Part shown: positions 30,966-64,000 of the stretch, in pieces | How positions within the stretch are numbered: position 1 is the first letter of the stretch | Layout of the letters: every line of letters begins with the position of its first letter | Assembly (NCBI GenBank): GCA_965218055.1 | Contig: CBDCKA010000002.1 | Location: 745,619-809,618, forward strand | Source: Terriglobia bacterium | GTDB taxonomy: Bacteria > Acidobacteriota > Terriglobia > JAJPHL01 > JAPKYU01 | DNA: 64,000 bases | Direction: 5' to 3' | The notes under the pieces: generated by a model | Database searches by the model: none | What the model saw: only the letters and a program-made list of their open reading frames with translations | Told to the model about the DNA's origin: nothing | Translations under genes and position numbers: made by a program

Positions 30966-31085
30966 GGTTCGGATACCGCCAGATATTGACCAGACCGATT
31001 GTTTCTTCTTGGCTTGGTGAGGTACAAACTTGTTGTGGAAAGTGTAAACCGGATTCAGTATGTGGAGCGCGTAGGAATGGGGGTT
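30966..31085 (-). mobile_element. Short remnant of an IS3-family right end (copy C). It shares TGACCAGACCGATT...GTGTAAACCGG with the copies at 41320 and 63464.
   Basis: Direct sequence similarity to the two other loci. It abuts or overlaps the 3' end of the FG-GAP gene. Confidence 0.4.
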
Positions 31086-33647
31086 TCACCTTGTGGGGTG
31101 CGCCCGGCTCTCTTCTCCCAATGAGAAGGCGGGCCGCTCCAGTGCCGTGAATGTTTTCTCCGACTCCTTGATTTCCAGGAACTGGTTTACCCCAACGTTA
31201 CGGAACACCTGCCGCGTGTCGCTGGTGGGCCACCAGATTTCCAGGGTTTCGATCCGGGCCGCCTTGCCCAGCCCGATGTGCTGCTCAAGAGGGGAGGCGC
31301 CAAACGACCCGCCACTGCCGACGACGCGATGAATGAAGTGGCGCCCACGGTCGCCCGTCTGCACGGCAAGCTTGACGCGGGCACCAATGGCCCCGCGGTT
31401 CGTTTTCACCCCCACCAGCCGCAGACTGATCCAGTTATTGCCGTGCCCGGGGTTTCTGAAGAGTAAGTTTCCGTGCCTGTCGCCCGGCACGGCGCCGCCC
31501 ATCTCAATAAAAATGTCTTGATCGCCGTCGTTGTCGATGTCGGCGAAGGCCACCCCGTGCCCCTTATGAAGATCGCCGGTCCCCGACGACGCGGTGACAT
31601 CCACGAAATACTTCCCGTCGTGATTCCTGAACAACACGTTTGGAGCGAGCGCTCCGTAAGAAGGAGTGCCGGTCCCCAAGTAGAAATCGAGAAATCCGTC
31701 ATTGTCCAGATCGCCGAAATTGGATCCCATGGGCTGAAACATGCGGTCTAGCCCAACACTTTTGGTCACGTCCTGGAAGCCTGACCCCGTGTTCCTGTAG
31801 AGCTTGAGCGTCTCGACCCCCACCGGCAATTCCAAGTAACTGCGTATGATGTCCATGATCGAGCTATAGTAACTGGAAACGAACAGGTCCAGCCAGCCGT
31901 CGTTGTCATAGTCGAAGAACCAGGCCGGGAAGCTGTAAATGGGGTGTTGCACTCCCAAGGGTTTGGCCATGTCGGTAAACGTAAGGTCGCGGTTGTTGTG
32001 GTAGAGGAAGTTTTCCGCAGACAGGTTTGAGAGATAGAAGTCCGGGTAGCCATCGTTGTCGTAGTCGCCCGCAACGACGGCTTTGGTGAACATGACCCGG
32101 TCCACGCCGGCGGCAGGCGCAATGTCCACGAAGGTCCCGTCTCCCTGGTTGAGGAAGAGCTGGCTGGGAGAGCGCTCGTTGCCCACGAATAGGTCCAGGT
32201 CGCCGTCCCGATCAATGTCAGCCCAGGCGGCAGTTTGCGTGGATGTGGCGGGCACCGCCAGCCCACTCTGGCGCGTCACGTCGGTGAAGGTTCCGTCGCA
32301 GTTGTTGCGCAGCAGCGAGTTGCGCATGGGCAGTACCCATGCGCCCCGGAGCACCAGAATATCCAGGCAACCGTCATTATCGTAGTCGGCGTGGACCATG
32401 TTCAGCCCGCCGAGCTGATTGGCCAGCCCGGCCTGCCCGGTTCGGTCGGTGAAGGTTCCGGTCCCGCTGTTGTGCAGGTAGCGCATCGGCGCGCAAGGGT
32501 CCATTGCGCTGGTCACAATGTCCAGCAGTCCGTCATTGTCCAGGTCATCCACAATCGCTCCGCCGGCCGTGTTGAAGGTGTCGGCTCCCACCAGAGGGGC
32601 TACGTCCACAAAGCGGCCCACATCCTCCTTGGACTCAAAGGGCGCGAGAGGAACCAGGTGTTGCTTGGGAACAGCGTCGGGGTACCTGCCCAGGGCCATC
32701 GAGGCAAGGTTCAGTAACCACCGCACCTCCAGGTCTTCCGGCTTCTGCTCCAGGAACTTGAGAAAATGCCGGATGGCGGCCTCCCAATTGGCGATCCGCT
32801 TCGGCTGCACCCCGCCAGGCATAGGAAACATGCAGGTCTTGGCACGAGCGCTGGGTACCAGGTTCTCCACCTCTGCCAATCGCAGGTGGGCAATCCCCAG
32901 CTTCTCCTCCAGTTCCAGCAGCAGCACCTGCTTGTCGCCGCGGGCGACAGCCTGTTTGTATGCCGCTTGAAGATACTTGACCGCCCGATCTAATTCCCCC
33001 TGGTAGGCCCAAAGCTGAGCCAGGGTGTGATAGGCAGCCAAGAGCCTACCGTCGCCCCCCTGCCCTGCGCTCTCGTTCTTGGCTGCTGCCAAATAGCTTT
33101 CCAACTCTTCAAATCCGCCACGAACCGCCGTAACCTGGACCGCGCAGACAGTTTGTAAATTCTGTTCCCAGCCGGCTGGCTTCTGGATGCGGCGAAACAG
33201 GTCTCTTGCTTCTTCACCTCCAGCGACGTCGGTGGTCAGTCGGCCCTCGACTCTCAGGCTCATGTAGCCAACTCTCTCTGCTTCCTCAAGCACCTTCAGG
33301 ATCATGTAGCCGGCCGGCGTTTGGACAACCCCGGACACCTGTCCCGCAGGCAGCCCCTTCAACGCCTCTCGAATTTCGGGGCGTAGATCCGACAGCTTCA
33401 CCTTCCCCAGATAGCCGCCCTCTGGCCCAGTGGAATCGATCGAGTGCTTCTTCGCCAACTCGGCAAAGTCCTCCCCGCGCTGGAGACTCGCCAGAACCTT
33501 TCGCGCCTCTTCGGACGTGCGCAGCAGAATCATCCGAACGTCAACCTCGAGAGGCTGCTCCTGCTCGCTCGCCCAGAAGACGGACCCGATCAACAGGAAA
33601 GGGATGCCCAGCACGACCATGGCCGGGTACAGCTTGATTCCTTTCAT
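31086..33647 (-). CDS. Fusion protein: N-terminal PpiC/parvulin-type PPIase domain, then a TPR-like region, FG-GAP repeats and a C-terminal ASPIC/UnbV domain.
   Basis: Parvulin-like EGGYLGKVKLSDLRPEIREAL...AGYMILKVLE. FG-GAP DxDxDGxxD repeats. C-terminal NRGAIGARVKLAV...GSGGSFGASPLEQHIGLG. Confidence 0.75.
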   Translation of the reverse strand: MKGIKLYPAMVVLGIPFLLIGSVFWASEQEQPLEVDVRMILLRTSEEARKVLASLQRGEDFAELAKKHSIDSTGPEGGYLGKVKLSDLRPEIREALKGLPAGQVSGVVQTPAGYMILKVLEEAERVGYMSLRVEGRLTTDVAGGEEARDLFRRIQKPAGWEQNLQTVCAVQVTAVRGGFEELESYLAAAKNESAGQGGDGRLLAAYHTLAQLWAYQGELDRAVKYLQAAYKQAVARGDKQVLLLELEEKLGIAHLRLAEVENLVPSARAKTCMFPMPGGVQPKRIANWEAAIRHFLKFLEQKPEDLEVRWLLNLASMALGRYPDAVPKQHLVPLAPFESKEDVGRFVDVAPLVGADTFNTAGGAIVDDLDNDGLLDIVTSAMDPCAPMRYLHNSGTGTFTDRTGQAGLANQLGGLNMVHADYDNDGCLDILVLRGAWVLPMRNSLLRNNCDGTFTDVTRQSGLAVPATSTQTAAWADIDRDGDLDLFVGNERSPSQLFLNQGDGTFVDIAPAAGVDRVMFTKAVVAGDYDNDGYPDFYLSNLSAENFLYHNNRDLTFTDMAKPLGVQHPIYSFPAWFFDYDNDGWLDLFVSSYYSSIMDIIRSYLELPVGVETLKLYRNTGSGFQDVTKSVGLDRMFQPMGSNFGDLDNDGFLDFYLGTGTPSYGALAPNVLFRNHDGKYFVDVTASSGTGDLHKGHGVAFADIDNDGDQDIFIEMGGAVPGDRHGNLLFRNPGHGNNWISLRLVGVKTNRGAIGARVKLAVQTGDRGRHFIHRVVGSGGSFGASPLEQHIGLGKAARIETLEIWWPTSDTRQVFRNVGVNQFLEIKESEKTFTALERPAFSLGEESRAHPTR

Positions 33648-34014
33648 GATATACGCGCCATTATAGCTCTAAACACGACCGCCGTCTCCGCACTCCGCAC
33701 TTGTTGACAAAGACGCGGACGATCCTACGGATCGCCCGCAGAAACGCGGCAAATCCAGCGGATTCCCCCGGAAAGCGGTCTGATGGAGAGGGCCTTCTCC
33801 CAGCGGCAGAGGCAGAGAGGCGTGAGGCAGTTCCTCCGACGCAATAGTATTCCTCGGCAGGGTCTGTCGAGCTGACGAGAAATGTTGCTTGCGGGCGAAA
33901 GTGGTGATGGTCCCTACAATTTTCCTTACGGTGCGGTACCATCAAGACCCTCGCGTGCCCCGCGAGGCGGAAGCCTCGCATGCGCGGTATGATGGTGGTG
34001 ATGTGCGATAAATC

Positions 34015-41319: not shown

Positions 41320-41640
41320 TGACCAGACCGCGTTTTTGTACCAAGCGTTGTGAGAGAGTCTACATCACAGCCAAGGGCTGTGAAACTGTCTTGGGTGGCG
41401 GATGGGGGTTGCCGGCCGCCGGGGCAGGCGGCCGGTAACCGAGCGAGGAACACGGTCGTTCGGTGTTGTGCTGGACCCGCCACTGCTCGATCACAATCTG
41501 TGCCTCCTTCAACCGAATCGCCAGGCAGGATCGAATGACGCCTGGCAGACATTTCCGGGCCGCTTCGTCAACCGGAAGCAGCCGCGGAGCGACATCCTCC
41601 TTTAGACCGCCACAGATTGCTTGACGAACGGGAGGTGCGA
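41320..41640 (-). mobile_element. IS3-family transposase remnant (copy A): a terminal inverted repeat plus an internally deleted OrfB C-terminus.
   Basis: LKEAQIVIEQWRVQHNTERPCSSLGYRPPAP is the IS3 OrfB C-terminal signature. The terminus TGACCAGACCGCGTTTTTGTACCAAG is homologous to 63464. Confidence 0.5.
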
Positions 41641-41708
41641 TCTTAGAATTAACGAGAGGCGTAGTGTCGGCCAATGGCGGGCAAGTGCCGCTCGAGGCGA
41701 GGTGCGCT

Positions 41709-59258: not shown

Positions 59259-61058
59259 CTATTCGAGTGAGAAAACGATCAGCGTTCCCCCCAGGTTGGT
59301 GAAGTCGCTGAGGGAGCGGCCGAGGCCGACCGCCCCCAGGCCTGCGGTCCCTTCCGTGAGCCCTTCTGCGAGCCCGATGCCCGCCCAGCCCCCCACGCCG
59401 GTAAGCACCGCGACGTACTGTTTGTCATCGTGCATGTACGTGATGGGGTTGCCGACGATGCCGGAGGGGGCGTGGAACTTGTAAAGAACCTTACCCGTGT
59501 CCATGGCGACCGCTCTGAACCAGCCGTCCAGTGACCCGTAGAAAGCCACCCTGCCGGCGGTGGTCAGCGGCCCACTATAGACTTGGAACGTGTCGTAGAT
59601 CGCCCACTTGGTCTTACCTGTCATTGGATCGAAAGCGATGAGCCGGCCACGCGTATTGCCGTGTCCTGCAGCAAACATGCTCACGGTGGCCCCGACGTGC
59701 GGAAAGCCAGCCTTATATTTGACGGTGAAAGCTTGATAGTCCATACAGATGTGGTTGGTACCGACGTAGAAGAGCTTGCTCTGGGGATCGTACGAGGCGG
59801 GTTGGTGGTTCTTAGCGCCCATAGCGGCCGGGCAGATGTCCTTGACGTTCACGTCGGCCTCGGTCATCTTGTCCGGGTTTAAGACGGGCCGCCCCGTCTC
59901 CATATCGATCTCCTTTGCCCAGTTCACCGTGGGATCAAATTTGTGCGCTCTGAGGAGCTTGCCGTTGCGGCGATCGAGCACGTAGGCGAAACCGTTGCGG
60001 TCGAAATGCGTGAGAGTCGGAACTGTCTGGCCGTCGATTTCCGCCTCGGTGAGGATACTCTCGTTAATGCCGTCGTAGTCCCAGCCGTCGTGGGGTGTCA
60101 TCTGATACGCCCACTGGGCTACGCCGGTGTCGGCATTTCGCGCGAAGAGGGTGGTGGACCACTTATTGTCGCCGGGCCGCTGCGTGGGATTCCATGTGCC
60201 CGGGTTGCCGGTGCCATAGTAGAGCAGGTTGAGCTTCGGATCGTAGGTATACCACCCCCACGTCGTGCCACCGCCGAGTTTCCACTCCTCTCCTTCCCAG
60301 GTCTTCAGGCTGGAATCCTTACCCACCGGTTTCTGGGTGGCACCATCGATGGTCTTCTCAGGATCAACCAGCATTTCCTCATCCGGCCCGGTGCTGTAGG
60401 CGCGCCACTCGTGCTTGCCGGTCTTGAGATCGTAGGCGTCCAGGTGACCGCGGGCACCGTACTCTCCCCCAGAAATACCGACGATTACTTTGTCATGGAC
60501 CACCAGCGGAGCCGCGGTTAGAGTTTCCCCCCGCTTTGGATCGGCGTTTCGGGCTTTCCAAAGGACCTTGCCGGTACTGGCCTCAAGGGCGTAGAGATGT
60601 CCATCTAAGGTGGTCGCAAGAATTTTCCCGTCCGCGTACGCCAGACCGCGGTTCACGAGGTCGCAGCAGGCAACCGACGGTGCGGACTTATCCTGAACTG
60701 GACTGAATTTCCAGACAATGCGTCCAATGTTATTCAGATCGATCGCGTAGACGTAGTTGGGGTAGGAACTCTCGAAGTACATCATGTCACCGATGACAAG
60801 AGGTTGGCCTTCCTGTCCCCGGAGGGTACCCGTCGACATCGTCCAAGCAACCCGAAGGTCTTTCGTGTTATGGACGTTAATCTGGTCTAGTTTGCTGTAG
60901 CGGATACCACTATAGCTTCCGAGGGGCATGACCCACTGTTGAGGATTCTGGGACATTTGCTCGAGAGACCCGTTGGCTGGTGCAGGAGTGGGAGCAATCG
61001 CAGCGCATGCACAAACTGCTATTGCCCAGCGCCAAAGCCGTTTCATTCTTCCCTTCAT
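59259..61058 (-). CDS. xoxF: PQQ-dependent methanol/alcohol dehydrogenase of the XoxF (lanthanide-dependent) type.
   Basis: Signal peptide MKGRMKRLWRWAIAVCACAAIA. Vicinal disulfide SVACCDLVNRG. Catalytic region PHDGWDYDGINE carries the DYD residue diagnostic of XoxF/PedH rather than MxaF (DYA). Confidence 0.8.
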   Translation of the reverse strand: MKGRMKRLWRWAIAVCACAAIAPTPAPANGSLEQMSQNPQQWVMPLGSYSGIRYSKLDQINVHNTKDLRVAWTMSTGTLRGQEGQPLVIGDMMYFESSYPNYVYAIDLNNIGRIVWKFSPVQDKSAPSVACCDLVNRGLAYADGKILATTLDGHLYALEASTGKVLWKARNADPKRGETLTAAPLVVHDKVIVGISGGEYGARGHLDAYDLKTGKHEWRAYSTGPDEEMLVDPEKTIDGATQKPVGKDSSLKTWEGEEWKLGGGTTWGWYTYDPKLNLLYYGTGNPGTWNPTQRPGDNKWSTTLFARNADTGVAQWAYQMTPHDGWDYDGINESILTEAEIDGQTVPTLTHFDRNGFAYVLDRRNGKLLRAHKFDPTVNWAKEIDMETGRPVLNPDKMTEADVNVKDICPAAMGAKNHQPASYDPQSKLFYVGTNHICMDYQAFTVKYKAGFPHVGATVSMFAAGHGNTRGRLIAFDPMTGKTKWAIYDTFQVYSGPLTTAGRVAFYGSLDGWFRAVAMDTGKVLYKFHAPSGIVGNPITYMHDDKQYVAVLTGVGGWAGIGLAEGLTEGTAGLGAVGLGRSLSDFTNLGGTLIVFSLE

Positions 61059-61200
61059 CGTCGGTTCTCCTTCTATTATCTCTTCTTGGGTATTCATTCC
61101 ACGCTTAGTAACAGATGACCTTCGGTGTCTGAGTAGGTTGGCTCTCGCCCGCGGCACCGCGCGGTACATTGTTAAGAACCCCCTCTGTCACGCCTGTTGC

Positions 61201-61215
61201 GGTGCAAATTGCACC
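61201..61215. promoter_or_regulatory. Perfect palindrome GGTGCAAaTTGCACC about 150 bp upstream of xoxF. Candidate transcription-factor binding site.
   Basis: Seen in sequence. Confidence 0.2.
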
Positions 61216-61459
61216 ACTGTTGCGCTACAGACTAGCATTGGCTGGGCCAATGTCAAGGACCCAAAGCTACCCCATTGATCCTTAACAGACCGAAATCAGA
61301 GGCCCGCGATTTCCCCTCAGGGCAGGTGCGTCAGCCAGTCTTCTTGGTTCGCCACTGAGCCGATGACAAACGCCCAGCGACAACCCGCCAATGTCGTGCT
61401 TTCGACTTTGCCCTCCCTCGCTCGGCGAACGGGCTCCCCTTTCCTCAAGAAACCGTCCG

Positions 61460-62209
61460 TTAGTCGAACTCAGACGGCGGCCTCCCGGCGGGCACCAGCC
61501 CGACGCTGCGCCCCCTCACGTACTGGTAGATTCGCTCAATCTCTTTGGCGTTGAAAAAGCCTGCCCAGCTCGGCATACCCTCGGCCTTCTTGCCTGCCAT
61601 GGCTACTGCGAGAAACTGCTGCGGCGTCATGCCCGCGCGAAGGGAACGCCGCAGATCCGGCGCAAGCTGGCCACTCACCGCGTCTTGACCATGGCAGCGG
61701 AAGCAGTAGGAGTTGTACAATTGATAACCGCGGAAGACGCCCTTCGTGACCTTGTCATCCTTGCCTTCCACAAACAGGCGGAAATCCAATCGGACCGTCT
61801 CACCATTCTTAAGATTGTAAGTGTATTTCTTTGTGCCAGCCCCAGGCTTAGCAGCCACCCGGTCTTTTAACGAGAGGATCCATTTGACCATTTCTCTGAG
61901 CTGGGTATCCGTCAAATTAGGGTGGGGGGGCATCGCCACCTCGCCCCATTCACCGGAGCCGCCCTGCCGGATCCTGGCGGCCAGCTTTTCCACAATTCCT
62001 GTTTGCCCCGCGTACCGCTTGGCCACGGCGTTATAGGCCGGGCCCACCAGTTGGCGGTCAATGGCGTGGCAGGAAGAGCAATCGCTATCTTCTACCAGCT
62101 TTTCGGCCTCTTCCCCTGCGGGCTTTTTGTTCGCCGGTGGCGTCTGGGCCCCAGCCCACACCCAAACTTGGGCCATCGCCACGAAGAACAGCGCCATTGC
62201 GGCAGTCAT
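61460..62209 (-). CDS. Diheme c-type cytochrome (XoxG/cytochrome cL-like electron acceptor).
   Basis: Two CxxCH motifs (CSSCH, CFRCH). Signal-peptide start MTAAMALFFVAMAQVWVWAGA. Confidence 0.7.
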   Translation of the reverse strand: MTAAMALFFVAMAQVWVWAGAQTPPANKKPAGEEAEKLVEDSDCSSCHAIDRQLVGPAYNAVAKRYAGQTGIVEKLAARIRQGGSGEWGEVAMPPHPNLTDTQLREMVKWILSLKDRVAAKPGAGTKKYTYNLKNGETVRLDFRLFVEGKDDKVTKGVFRGYQLYNSYCFRCHGQDAVSGQLAPDLRRSLRAGMTPQQFLAVAMAGKKAEGMPSWAGFFNAKEIERIYQYVRGRSVGLVPAGRPPSEFD

Positions 62210-62311
62210 GTCCCTGCCAAAGCCCCCCTCCTTCTTGTGTGAGGTTACCTCAATCCCCGCGTCTGGTAACTCTGCCGCACGAACCGGCATGCCTTCAGAG
62301 GAGATCATGGG

Positions 62312-63112
62312 TCAGCGCTCGGGCGTGTACAATTTCACGCCGTGCTCACTTAGTATGGAGGTGAGTTCCGTCTGGTGCTTAGCGATCACCTCGTCGAGTC
62401 GCTTTTTCAAGGCGGTGTCGTCGTCGCGTACTCCCATGGACATAGGGAACACGTACTGCTCCGGCGAACCTGTAGCCCGTTCGCTCGGAACTCCCACGAC
62501 ATTTAGATCGGGATACCTTTTTAGGAAGGCACCGATCGCGGGCTCCCAAGTGATCATGACATCGACTCGTCCGTTTTGGACTGCATCCAGCATGACAATG
62601 GGCGATTCCCCGGCATGACCTCCGATGTCGAAGGCAACCGCGCGTTGGACCATCCCACGTATCTTCAGGCCGCTTTCGGGCGGAGTGTCCTGTTCAAAGC
62701 CGACCTTGATCCGTTGAAGGACCGGCGAATCCATACTGGTGACGTCGTAGTTTGCAGATTTCTTAAAAATAAATACATAGGACGAGATGTAATACGGTTC
62801 GGTAGTGCGTGCTTGCCGGCTTCCATACGGAATATCCATCACGACATCGCACTTGCTAGCGTCGAGCGTGGTGGCCAAGAATTCGGAGAAACCGCCGTGC
62901 CCGCGGTAGCTTGCCCAGGTGTACTCCAACGTTTCGCCAAGCGCGTTGGCAACGGCTTCGGCGATCTTGTTTTCGAAGCCCTCCCCCGCCCGATTCGAAT
63001 ACGGTAGATAGTCGGGATCTGCGCAGACGCGCAACGCCTTGCCATGAACCGGGACTGCCGAGGACGCCAGGCTTGCGAGTGCCAAGGCGGCAACGAGGGA
63101 ACCGAGCTTCAT
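62312..63112 (-). CDS. Quinoprotein-dehydrogenase-associated periplasmic substrate-binding protein (MxaJ/XoxJ-like).
   Basis: Signal peptide MKLGSLVAALALASLASSA, then ALRVCADPDYLPYSNR, characteristic of the MoxJ-like family. It lies between cytochrome c and the IS. Confidence 0.6.
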   Translation of the reverse strand: MKLGSLVAALALASLASSAVPVHGKALRVCADPDYLPYSNRAGEGFENKIAEAVANALGETLEYTWASYRGHGGFSEFLATTLDASKCDVVMDIPYGSRQARTTEPYYISSYVFIFKKSANYDVTSMDSPVLQRIKVGFEQDTPPESGLKIRGMVQRAVAFDIGGHAGESPIVMLDAVQNGRVDVMITWEPAIGAFLKRYPDLNVVGVPSERATGSPEQYVFPMSMGVRDDDTALKKRLDEVIAKHQTELTSILSEHGVKLYTPER

Positions 63113-63165: not shown

Positions 63166-63271
63166 CCATCTCCAACGACGTCAGCCGTGTCAAGGGTTCT
63201 TTCTTTCCGTTTTTCTTCCCTTCAGGCATAAAGATCCATCCGGGCAGGCGCACGCCTTTGGTCGGTAACTC
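63166..63271. repeat. Copy 1 of a diverged direct repeat of about 106 bp.
   Basis: ccatctccaacgacgtcagccgtgtcaagggttctttctttccgttttt...ggtcggtaactc is about 88% identical to 63354-63459. Confidence 0.6.
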
Positions 63272-63353
63272 TTTCTCCGTCGCCGAATCTTCATCCGTGT
63301 CCAGCCCCCTCACTCGGCCTGTGTTACTTCATCAGCTCGGTGTTGCCCACCAA

Positions 63354-63459
63354 CCATCTCTAACGACGTTGGCCGTGTCAAGGGTTCTTTCTTTCCGTTT
63401 CTGTTCTCTTCAGGCACAACGATCCATCCGGGCAGGCGCATGCCTTGGGTCGGCAACTC
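63354..63459. repeat. Copy 2 of the direct repeat of about 106 bp. It ends exactly at the IS3-family terminus.
   Basis: ccatctctaacgacgttggccgtgtcaagggttctttctttccgtttctg...ggtcggcaactc is followed by ggtc|TGACCAGACCG. Confidence 0.6.
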
Positions 63460-63463
63460 GGTC

Positions 63464-64000
63464 TGACCAGACCGATTTTTTGTACCAACAGTAGCGAAAG
63501 TCTACATCATAGCCTGGGGCCGTGAAACCGGTTTTGGTAGTAGGAAAGGGTTATAGGCCCCCGGCGCCGGGGGCCTATAGCCCAGCGCGAGTGTGGCCGC
63601 CTCGTGTTGTATTCCTCCCGCCACTGTTCCACCACCACCTGTGCCTCCTTCAAGGAGTAAAAGATCTCTCCATTCAGGCAATCATCCCGCAGCTTCCCAT
63701 TGAAACTCTCACAGTATCCGTTCTCCCAAGGGCTGCCCGGTTCGATGTACAGCGTCGCGGTCCCTAGTTTCGCCAGCCACTGGCGCAGCTGTTGGGCAAT
63801 GCACTCGGGCCCGTTATCAGAGCGAAGGTGCTCTGGAATGCCCTTCCACAGCATCACGTCCGACAACGTCTCGATGACCTCCTGACTGCCCATCCTTCGC
63901 TCTACCCGGATCGCCGGGCATTCTCGCGTGTATTCTCGATCAGCGTCAATAACCGCAACGTTTTCCCCTCATGCGTTCTGGCACTCACGAAGTCATAGCT
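63464..64000 (-). mobile_element. IS3-family insertion sequence (copy B), right end and 3' part of orfB. The element continues beyond the window end.
   Basis: Terminus TGACCAGACCGATTTTTTGTACC. Palindrome GGCCCCCGGCGCCGGGGGCC. OrfB C-terminal DDE region SDNGPECIAQQLRQWL...GSPWENGYCESFNGKLRDDCLN...LKEAQVVVEQWREEYNTRRPHS. Confidence 0.6.
63507..63893 (-). pseudogene. IS3-family transposase OrfB C-terminal portion with a frameshift at its very end (RPHSRWAIGPRRRG instead of RPHSALGYRPPAP).
   Basis: The +1 frame restores ALGYRPPAPGAY. The upstream part has a stop in the N-terminal direction before the window end. Confidence 0.55.

Follow-up and report, generated by a model that had tools for sequence, protein, structure and literature searches.

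A 64,000-nt stretch of contig CBDCKA010000002.1 from a Terriglobia bacterium, here called the window, contains three sites at which one short sequence recurs in the same orientation. This raises the questions of whether the sites are remains of a mobile element, how much of such an element each site retains, and whether any of them has altered a neighboring gene. A sequence-only reading had proposed that all three are terminal remnants of one IS3-family element and that the shortest may have supplied the C terminus of the gene beside it. Within the window, there are exactly three occurrences of the 11-mer TGACCAGACCG, always on the + strand, at positions 30987 (copy C), 41320 (copy A), and 63464 (copy B). 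A search with the 18-mer tip TGACCAGACCGATTTTTT, allowing up to 2 mismatches, found these three sites only, and no match was found in 100 dinucleotide shuffles. The common start in one orientation is thus present at all three loci, but for copy C it had been placed at 30966, which is 21 nt too far to the left of the actual position, 30987. We consider it very likely that the window holds relics of one IS3-family group common in Acidobacteriota (Terriglobia), with copy B representing the right part of an element, copy A a diverged member, and copy C a scar.

Intact relatives in Acidobacteriota/Terriglobia showed that TGACCAGACCG forms the tip of a right inverted repeat (IRR) belonging to an IS3-family element of ~1250 bp. 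A genome-collection scan with the transposase fragment of copy B returned 594 relatives, the closest of which (86% amino acid identity) were in Terriglobia/Acidobacteriota MAGs. In the relative loci, CGGTCTGGTCA was found 115 to 175 nt past the matched part of orfB, the same 11- to 24-nt IRR follows orfB, and the left repeat (IRL) lies ~1250 bp upstream. The intact element (~35 copies) has TGACCTGACCGG...TTTTGTACCA as its IRL and TGACCAGACCGATTTTTTGTACCA as its IRR; the repeats are ~24 bp long and start with TGACC, and the orfB stop lies ~40 nt from the IRR tip. The 33 distinct bounded copies were 1236 to 1401 bp long, mostly 1236 to 1304 bp, and clean 4-bp target duplications were seen at L003 (TCAC), L007 (GGCG), L010 (CTGC), L016 (AAAC), L023 (TGAG), and L037 (GATT). 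The parent element may belong to the IS407 subgroup of the IS3 family, with whose traits (a size of ~1.25 kb, 4-bp target duplications, and termini beginning with TGACC) the intact relatives are consistent.

The assignment to the IS3 family was examined in the intact copy at L003:2224-3473. Its orfA is in frame 1 and its orfB in frame 0 (corresponding to the 0 and -1 frames), and the two overlap at CAG_GGA_AAC, where the heptamer G_GGA_AAC fits the X XXY YYZ pattern. The fused OrfAB scored 297.9 bits against NF033516 (IS3 family transposase; cut-off, 160) over profile positions 1 to 366 of 369, with an HTH_Tnp_1 domain in orfA and HTH_21, rve, and rve_3 domains in orfB. Members of the IS3 family are 1200 to 1550 bp long, have 20- to 40-bp IRs, and fuse orfA and orfB via programmed -1 frameshifting (PMC7371123). 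The intact relatives are alike in size (1236 to 1304 bp, within the 1.2 to 1.55 kb of the family), in having two consecutive ORFs with orfB in the -1 frame and a putative frameshift site in the overlap, in having a DDE (rve) transposase that scores above the curated cut-off, in having terminal IRs within the 20- to 40-bp range that start 5'-TG, and in having short (3- to 5-bp) target-site duplications; copies A and B carry the IRR. The OrfAB of intact members would presumably be made by -1 frameshifting at the G_GGA_AAC heptamer, and, from what is known of the family, these members would be expected to transpose like other IS3-family elements; the 4-bp duplications left upon insertion are seen directly. 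Plasmid homologs are annotated only as "IS3 family transposase." In contrast with the intact relatives, the window copies are relics: copy A is 194 bp long, copy B is frameshifted and ends at the window edge, and copy C amounts to 18 bp. The left end and orfA are absent from all three inside the window, so none of them can transpose and, within the window, they are inert; the catalytic core is also missing from copies A and C.

Copies A and B are IRR-side terminal remnants of IS3-family elements with bodies pointing rightwards, as had been proposed, and profile, blastn, and transposase-domain matches all agree on this point (E values against intact copies ranged from 1e-170 to 1e-34). Copy B (63464 to 64000, minus strand) is the IRR-proximal 537 bp of an element, spanning IS positions 712 to 1250 and ending at the window edge. 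It was 84.6% identical to the intact L003 IS over 539 bp (blastn, E of 1e-170) and matched the full-IS profile with an E of 1.9e-146 (nhmmer). Its minus strand encodes an integrase-core fragment (Pfam rve and rve_3; orfB codons ~124 to 289) for which IS3 was the best family, with 115.7 bits over profile positions 241 to 359 of the NCBIfam IS3 transposase model. The IRR of copy B, TGACCAGACCGATTTTTTGTACCA (63464 to 63487, + strand, tip at 63464), is identical to those of the intact elements in L001, L003, and L005. Relative to the intact element, copy B has two 1-nt deletions (~63935 and ~63588), both of which break the orfB frame, although assembly errors could account for them. Copy B is the right part of one such element, inactivated, if the deletions are real, by these two frameshifts.

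Copy A (41320 to 41513, minus strand) derives from another, more diverged IS3-family element, of which it holds the last ~194 bp (IS positions 1059 to 1250), with its IRR at 41320 to 41343, the orfB stop at 41360 to 41362, and the last ~53 orfB codons at 41363 to 41521. It matched the full-IS profile with an E of 3.9e-36 (nhmmer), and residues 131 to 183 of its ORF matched the C terminus of OrfB with an E of 2e-19 (phmmer). With a profile restricted to IS ends from other genomes, copies A and B gave E values of 5e-21 and 6e-20. The two were only 71% identical to each other over 193 nt (~195 nt aligned), and each was closer to a different intact element: copy A was 82.9% identical to the L027 IS and 75.8% identical to the L003 IS by blastn, whereas the closest relative of copy B was the L003 IS, at the 84.6% given above. 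The view that they are copies of one element did not hold up; judged by their sequences, A and B are two different members of one IS group. The downstream blocks that all three loci had been said to share (gtaccaa..agtctacatca..gtgaaacc) are present in A and B, where they correspond to the IRR and to the final codons of orfB (..KPVSQPQAAM and stop), since the orfB stop lies so close to the IRR tip; they were unsupported in C. Likewise, decay of the copies was borne out by the two 1-nt deletions in B and the loss of internal IS sequence from A, but the idea that each copy had been truncated to a different length held only for A, which was shortened; B simply ends at the window edge, and C is only an 18-bp tip match.

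The history of copy A could be followed in a related contig, L081, which shares 96.2% identity with the window and is colinear with it over 21056 to 41511. There, the ortholog of copy A has the same flank but retains 382 bp of the element (IS positions 868 to 1250), with 113 orfB codons, and is followed by an IS1595 element. Since the L081 copy is longer, the window copy must have lost ~190 bp of IS sequence after the lineages split. The earlier claim that copy A keeps about 100 orfB codons with an internal deletion was thus correct as to the loss of internal IS sequence but not as to the codons, of which only ~53 remain. Copy A was truncated already in the ancestor shared with this relative and then shortened further in the window lineage. 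The colinearity of the two contigs breaks off within or beside copy A (41511 to 41625; L081:854-1940). Past this point, L081 has an IS1595-family transposase, and the window goes into a gene for a GWxTD-domain protein (41709 onward). We also considered whether 41514 to 41567 is IS derived, given a resemblance of its translation ("RLLPVDE..CLAIR") to OrfB, and rejected this candidate, which was unsupported by nhmmer, phmmer, and a shuffle test (p = 0.75).

Copy C proved to be much smaller than proposed. Of the 120-bp terminal remnant assigned to it (30966 to 31085), only 30987 to 31004 (+ strand) is alike: this is a solo 18-nt match, TGACCAGACCGATTgTTT, with 17 of 18 nt identical to the IRR tip. 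The motif, TGACCAGACCGATT, lies in the intergenic region between the TPR and FG-GAP genes, and the match ends precisely on the outermost nucleotide of the IRR. It was unchanged in the syntenic contigs L081 and L091, and its presence in all three genomes indicates that it is older than their split. Neither an empty site nor a full element was found at this position, since all three syntenic genomes carry copy C and the next TPR/FG-GAP homologs are nonsyntenic. We think that copy C is probably an IR-tip scar, in which the outermost 18 bp of an IRR survived the deletion of the remaining element. Like other solo IS ends and deletion scars, it is an isolated IR tip with neither a partner end nor a transposase; unlike them, it is much shorter than the full IR (18 of ~24 nt), so that the case for its origin from an IS is a statistical one and not a demonstration. 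We rejected a composite or MITE-like structure, as no partner IR was found near copy C and no IRL was found on the 5' side of the FG-GAP gene. The region showed no structure upon RNA folding (z = +2), and Rfam and tRNA scans of the window found nothing.

The match at copy C might instead be due to chance, in which case no IS of this group ever occupied the intergenic region between the TPR and FG-GAP genes; we regard this as unlikely. In favor of coincidence, 17 nt aligned with an E of 0.94 (nhmmer) to a profile of 23 IRR ends from other genomes, blastn, with register ignored, gave an E of 0.23, and the invariant GTACCA at IR positions 19 to 24 is absent. There is no IS-like sequence nearby, and the full-length IS profile had no match on either side. 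A scan of a metagenome collection with the C-specific 20-mer, which led us to reject copy C as the end of a multicopy element, gave a single match in an unrelated coding sequence (L090:2416-2435, in which CTGACCAGACCGATT encodes L-T-R-P-I), and such tips can therefore arise by chance in very large databases. Arguing against coincidence, the match begins exactly at the terminal T of the IRR, and over 14 nt it does not differ from copy B or the nearest intact elements. Random 18-mers of matched composition match the window with at most 1 mismatch at a frequency of 5e-5, and in ~0.5 Mb of related loci, the exact 14-mer was found only at genuine IS ends and at the copy C ortholog, with no spurious matches. 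It is far less credible that the sequence common to the three sites serves the host as a regulatory or terminator element located downstream of genes, and we give this explanation almost no weight, even though all three sites are intergenic and the flank and tip of copy B together form a 7-bp hairpin followed by T6. The ~35 intact copies show the sequence as the IR end of a 1.25-kb element with 4-bp duplications, so that for A and B this explanation is already contradicted. The hairpin is tied to the flank of copy B, being absent at A, at C, and at other copies, and the absence of an Rfam match and of structure at C does not favor a host element either.

A further possibility is that copy C is a diverged terminal remnant of ~100 bp whose body replaced the last ~12 codons of the adjacent gene. 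This gene (31086 to 33647, minus strand; Pfam domains) lies outside the IS sequence and encodes an 853-amino-acid protein with a PpiC rotamase domain, FG-GAP repeats, and an UnbV_ASPIC domain, the domains ending at residue 824 of 853; an exact look-up of the protein returned no record. Homology of the gene to all other copies stops at 31076 to 31080, 89 nt from the copy C tip, and the ancestral tail (RRETPLRPSRRVEQKPE and stop) is missing in the clade comprising the window, L081, and L091. The nonhomologous 71-nt segment between this breakpoint and the tip supplies the last 7 codons (STSRSTY and stop) in L081 and L091. These features partly favor the earlier idea about the C terminus, as does a marginal similarity past the tip (best alignment score of 11 versus 6.6 ± 1.8 for the null; p of about 0.03). 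However, neither end profiles nor full-length profiles detected significant IS similarity in 31005 to 31075, and homology beyond the IR tip, as would mark an IS3 remnant, was not seen. The 71-nt segment likewise lacked similarity to the full-IS profile and had no match in the related loci compared. Uniform decay cannot give a 17/18 tip beside a near-random remainder, the 20-mer joining the tip to the subterminal sequence did not appear as a multicopy end in the metagenome collection, and the stop and last residues in the window are ancestral sequence. A remnant of this length is accordingly improbable in our view, more so than a chance match, and the short IR-tip scar remains our preferred reading of copy C.

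Comparison of the FG-GAP gene's 3' end with homologs in unrelated contexts bears on two of the earlier claims about copy C. Its overlap with the last codons and stop can be dismissed on coordinates, as the stop (31086 to 31088) lies 82 nt from the tip of the 30987-to-31004 match. Nor is copy C the source of the C terminus in the window: the final residues (..FSLGEESRAHPTR) are conserved in homologs of 80 to 95% identity from unrelated contexts, so that the C terminus present in the window is ancestral sequence, and the stop itself was produced within ancestral codons by a 2-nt deletion (31086 to 31090) relative to L081, L091, L082, and L085, which changed AGG CGT GAA to AGG TGA. All relatives read on past this position (..HPTRRETP..), and the window protein is 11 residues shorter than that of the closest relative. 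The deletion could be either a real mutation or a long-read assembly error.

The FG-GAP gene is itself part of a gene-sized block of homology (31076 to 33687) that shows 86 to 90% nucleotide identity in nonsyntenic Terriglobia contexts (L082 to L089), with homology ending within ~40 bp of the gene ends. It occurs as a tandem pair in L089 and on the plasmid-like, IS-rich contigs L082 to L084 (ParA, RepA_C, PIN/PhD, IS1595, and Transposase_mut). This pattern suggests recent gene-level transfer, duplication, or conversion. The 3' boundary of the block is the breakpoint 89 nt from the copy C tip, on the side where the interior of an IS would lie. The tip might be the scar of an IS-mediated delivery or re-joining of the PpiC-FG-GAP-ASPIC gene at this locus, a reading we hold to be doubtful.

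Copy B adjoins the gene for an mxaJ-like periplasmic binding protein. Genes for a cytochrome c and a PQQ-dependent dehydrogenase come after it, and the group makes up an xoxF/mxaF-type alcohol dehydrogenase cluster (59259 to 63112, minus strand). In L093 and L094, whose mxaJ-like gene is 97% identical, fdhE is the immediate upstream neighbor and no IS is present there. Homology of the window to these contigs stops at ~63149, ~37 nt upstream of the mxaJ-like start codon. Because fdhE abuts the mxaJ-like gene in these relatives, copy B and the adjoining 314 bp lie at a difference in gene order; the break and the tip of copy B are 314 bp apart, and this placement is less certain than that of copy A. 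The 314 bp between the mxaJ-like gene and copy B are absent from L093 and L094 and had no match in any related locus compared. They contain a partial tandem duplication with a 188-bp period and 88 to 90% identity (63166 to 63276 and 63354 to 63464), the second unit of which ends at the IS junction. Across this junction (63458 to 63481), the flank TCGGTC and the IRR tip TGACCAGACCGA form the 7-bp hairpin and T6 mentioned above, an intrinsic-terminator-like structure on the + strand that faces into the IS. Neither A nor C nor any intact copy that was checked showed this structure, which probably depends on the particular flank of copy B.

The decay seen here is of an ordinary and already known kind that involves no new mechanism, and the significance of the analysis is mainly one of housekeeping: two intergenic stretches can be assigned to dead IS3-family elements with corrected extents, and, for the window, the suggestion of an FG-GAP C terminus supplied by an IS is removed. 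The copies also record past rearrangement, since gene order differs from that of 96 to 97%-identical relatives at copy A and a few hundred base pairs from copy B, and they may be of use for annotation and for reconstructing recent rearrangements in related Terriglobia genomes. Any present-day effect of the relics would be limited to the regions upstream of two neighboring minus-strand genes, those for a beta-helix protein (41251) and the mxaJ-like protein (63112). Promoter-like sequences, which are consensus matches only, were found in and beside copy A: one on the minus strand (41384 to 41357) points toward the beta-helix gene, and one on the plus strand (41621 to 41649) points toward the GWxTD gene.

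A conserved hairpin was also observed within the 3' end of orfB. In copy B it has a 14-bp stem (63549 to 63582); in copy A (41407 to 41440), 13 of 14 pairs are retained, and the hairpin is perfect in the L081 ortholog. In copy B and many intact copies (for example, L003:3355-3388), it is a perfect 34-nt palindrome that encodes GYRPPAPGAYSP on both strands. The hairpin could be a terminator-like or other cis-acting element; that it is a hitherto undescribed cis-acting element of this IS subgroup, a proposal separate from that of gene delivery at copy C, seems to us about equally doubtful. Across 13 IS copies, 5 of the 14 pairs showed compensatory changes, 95.6% of cells were paired, and none of 500 shuffles attained these values.
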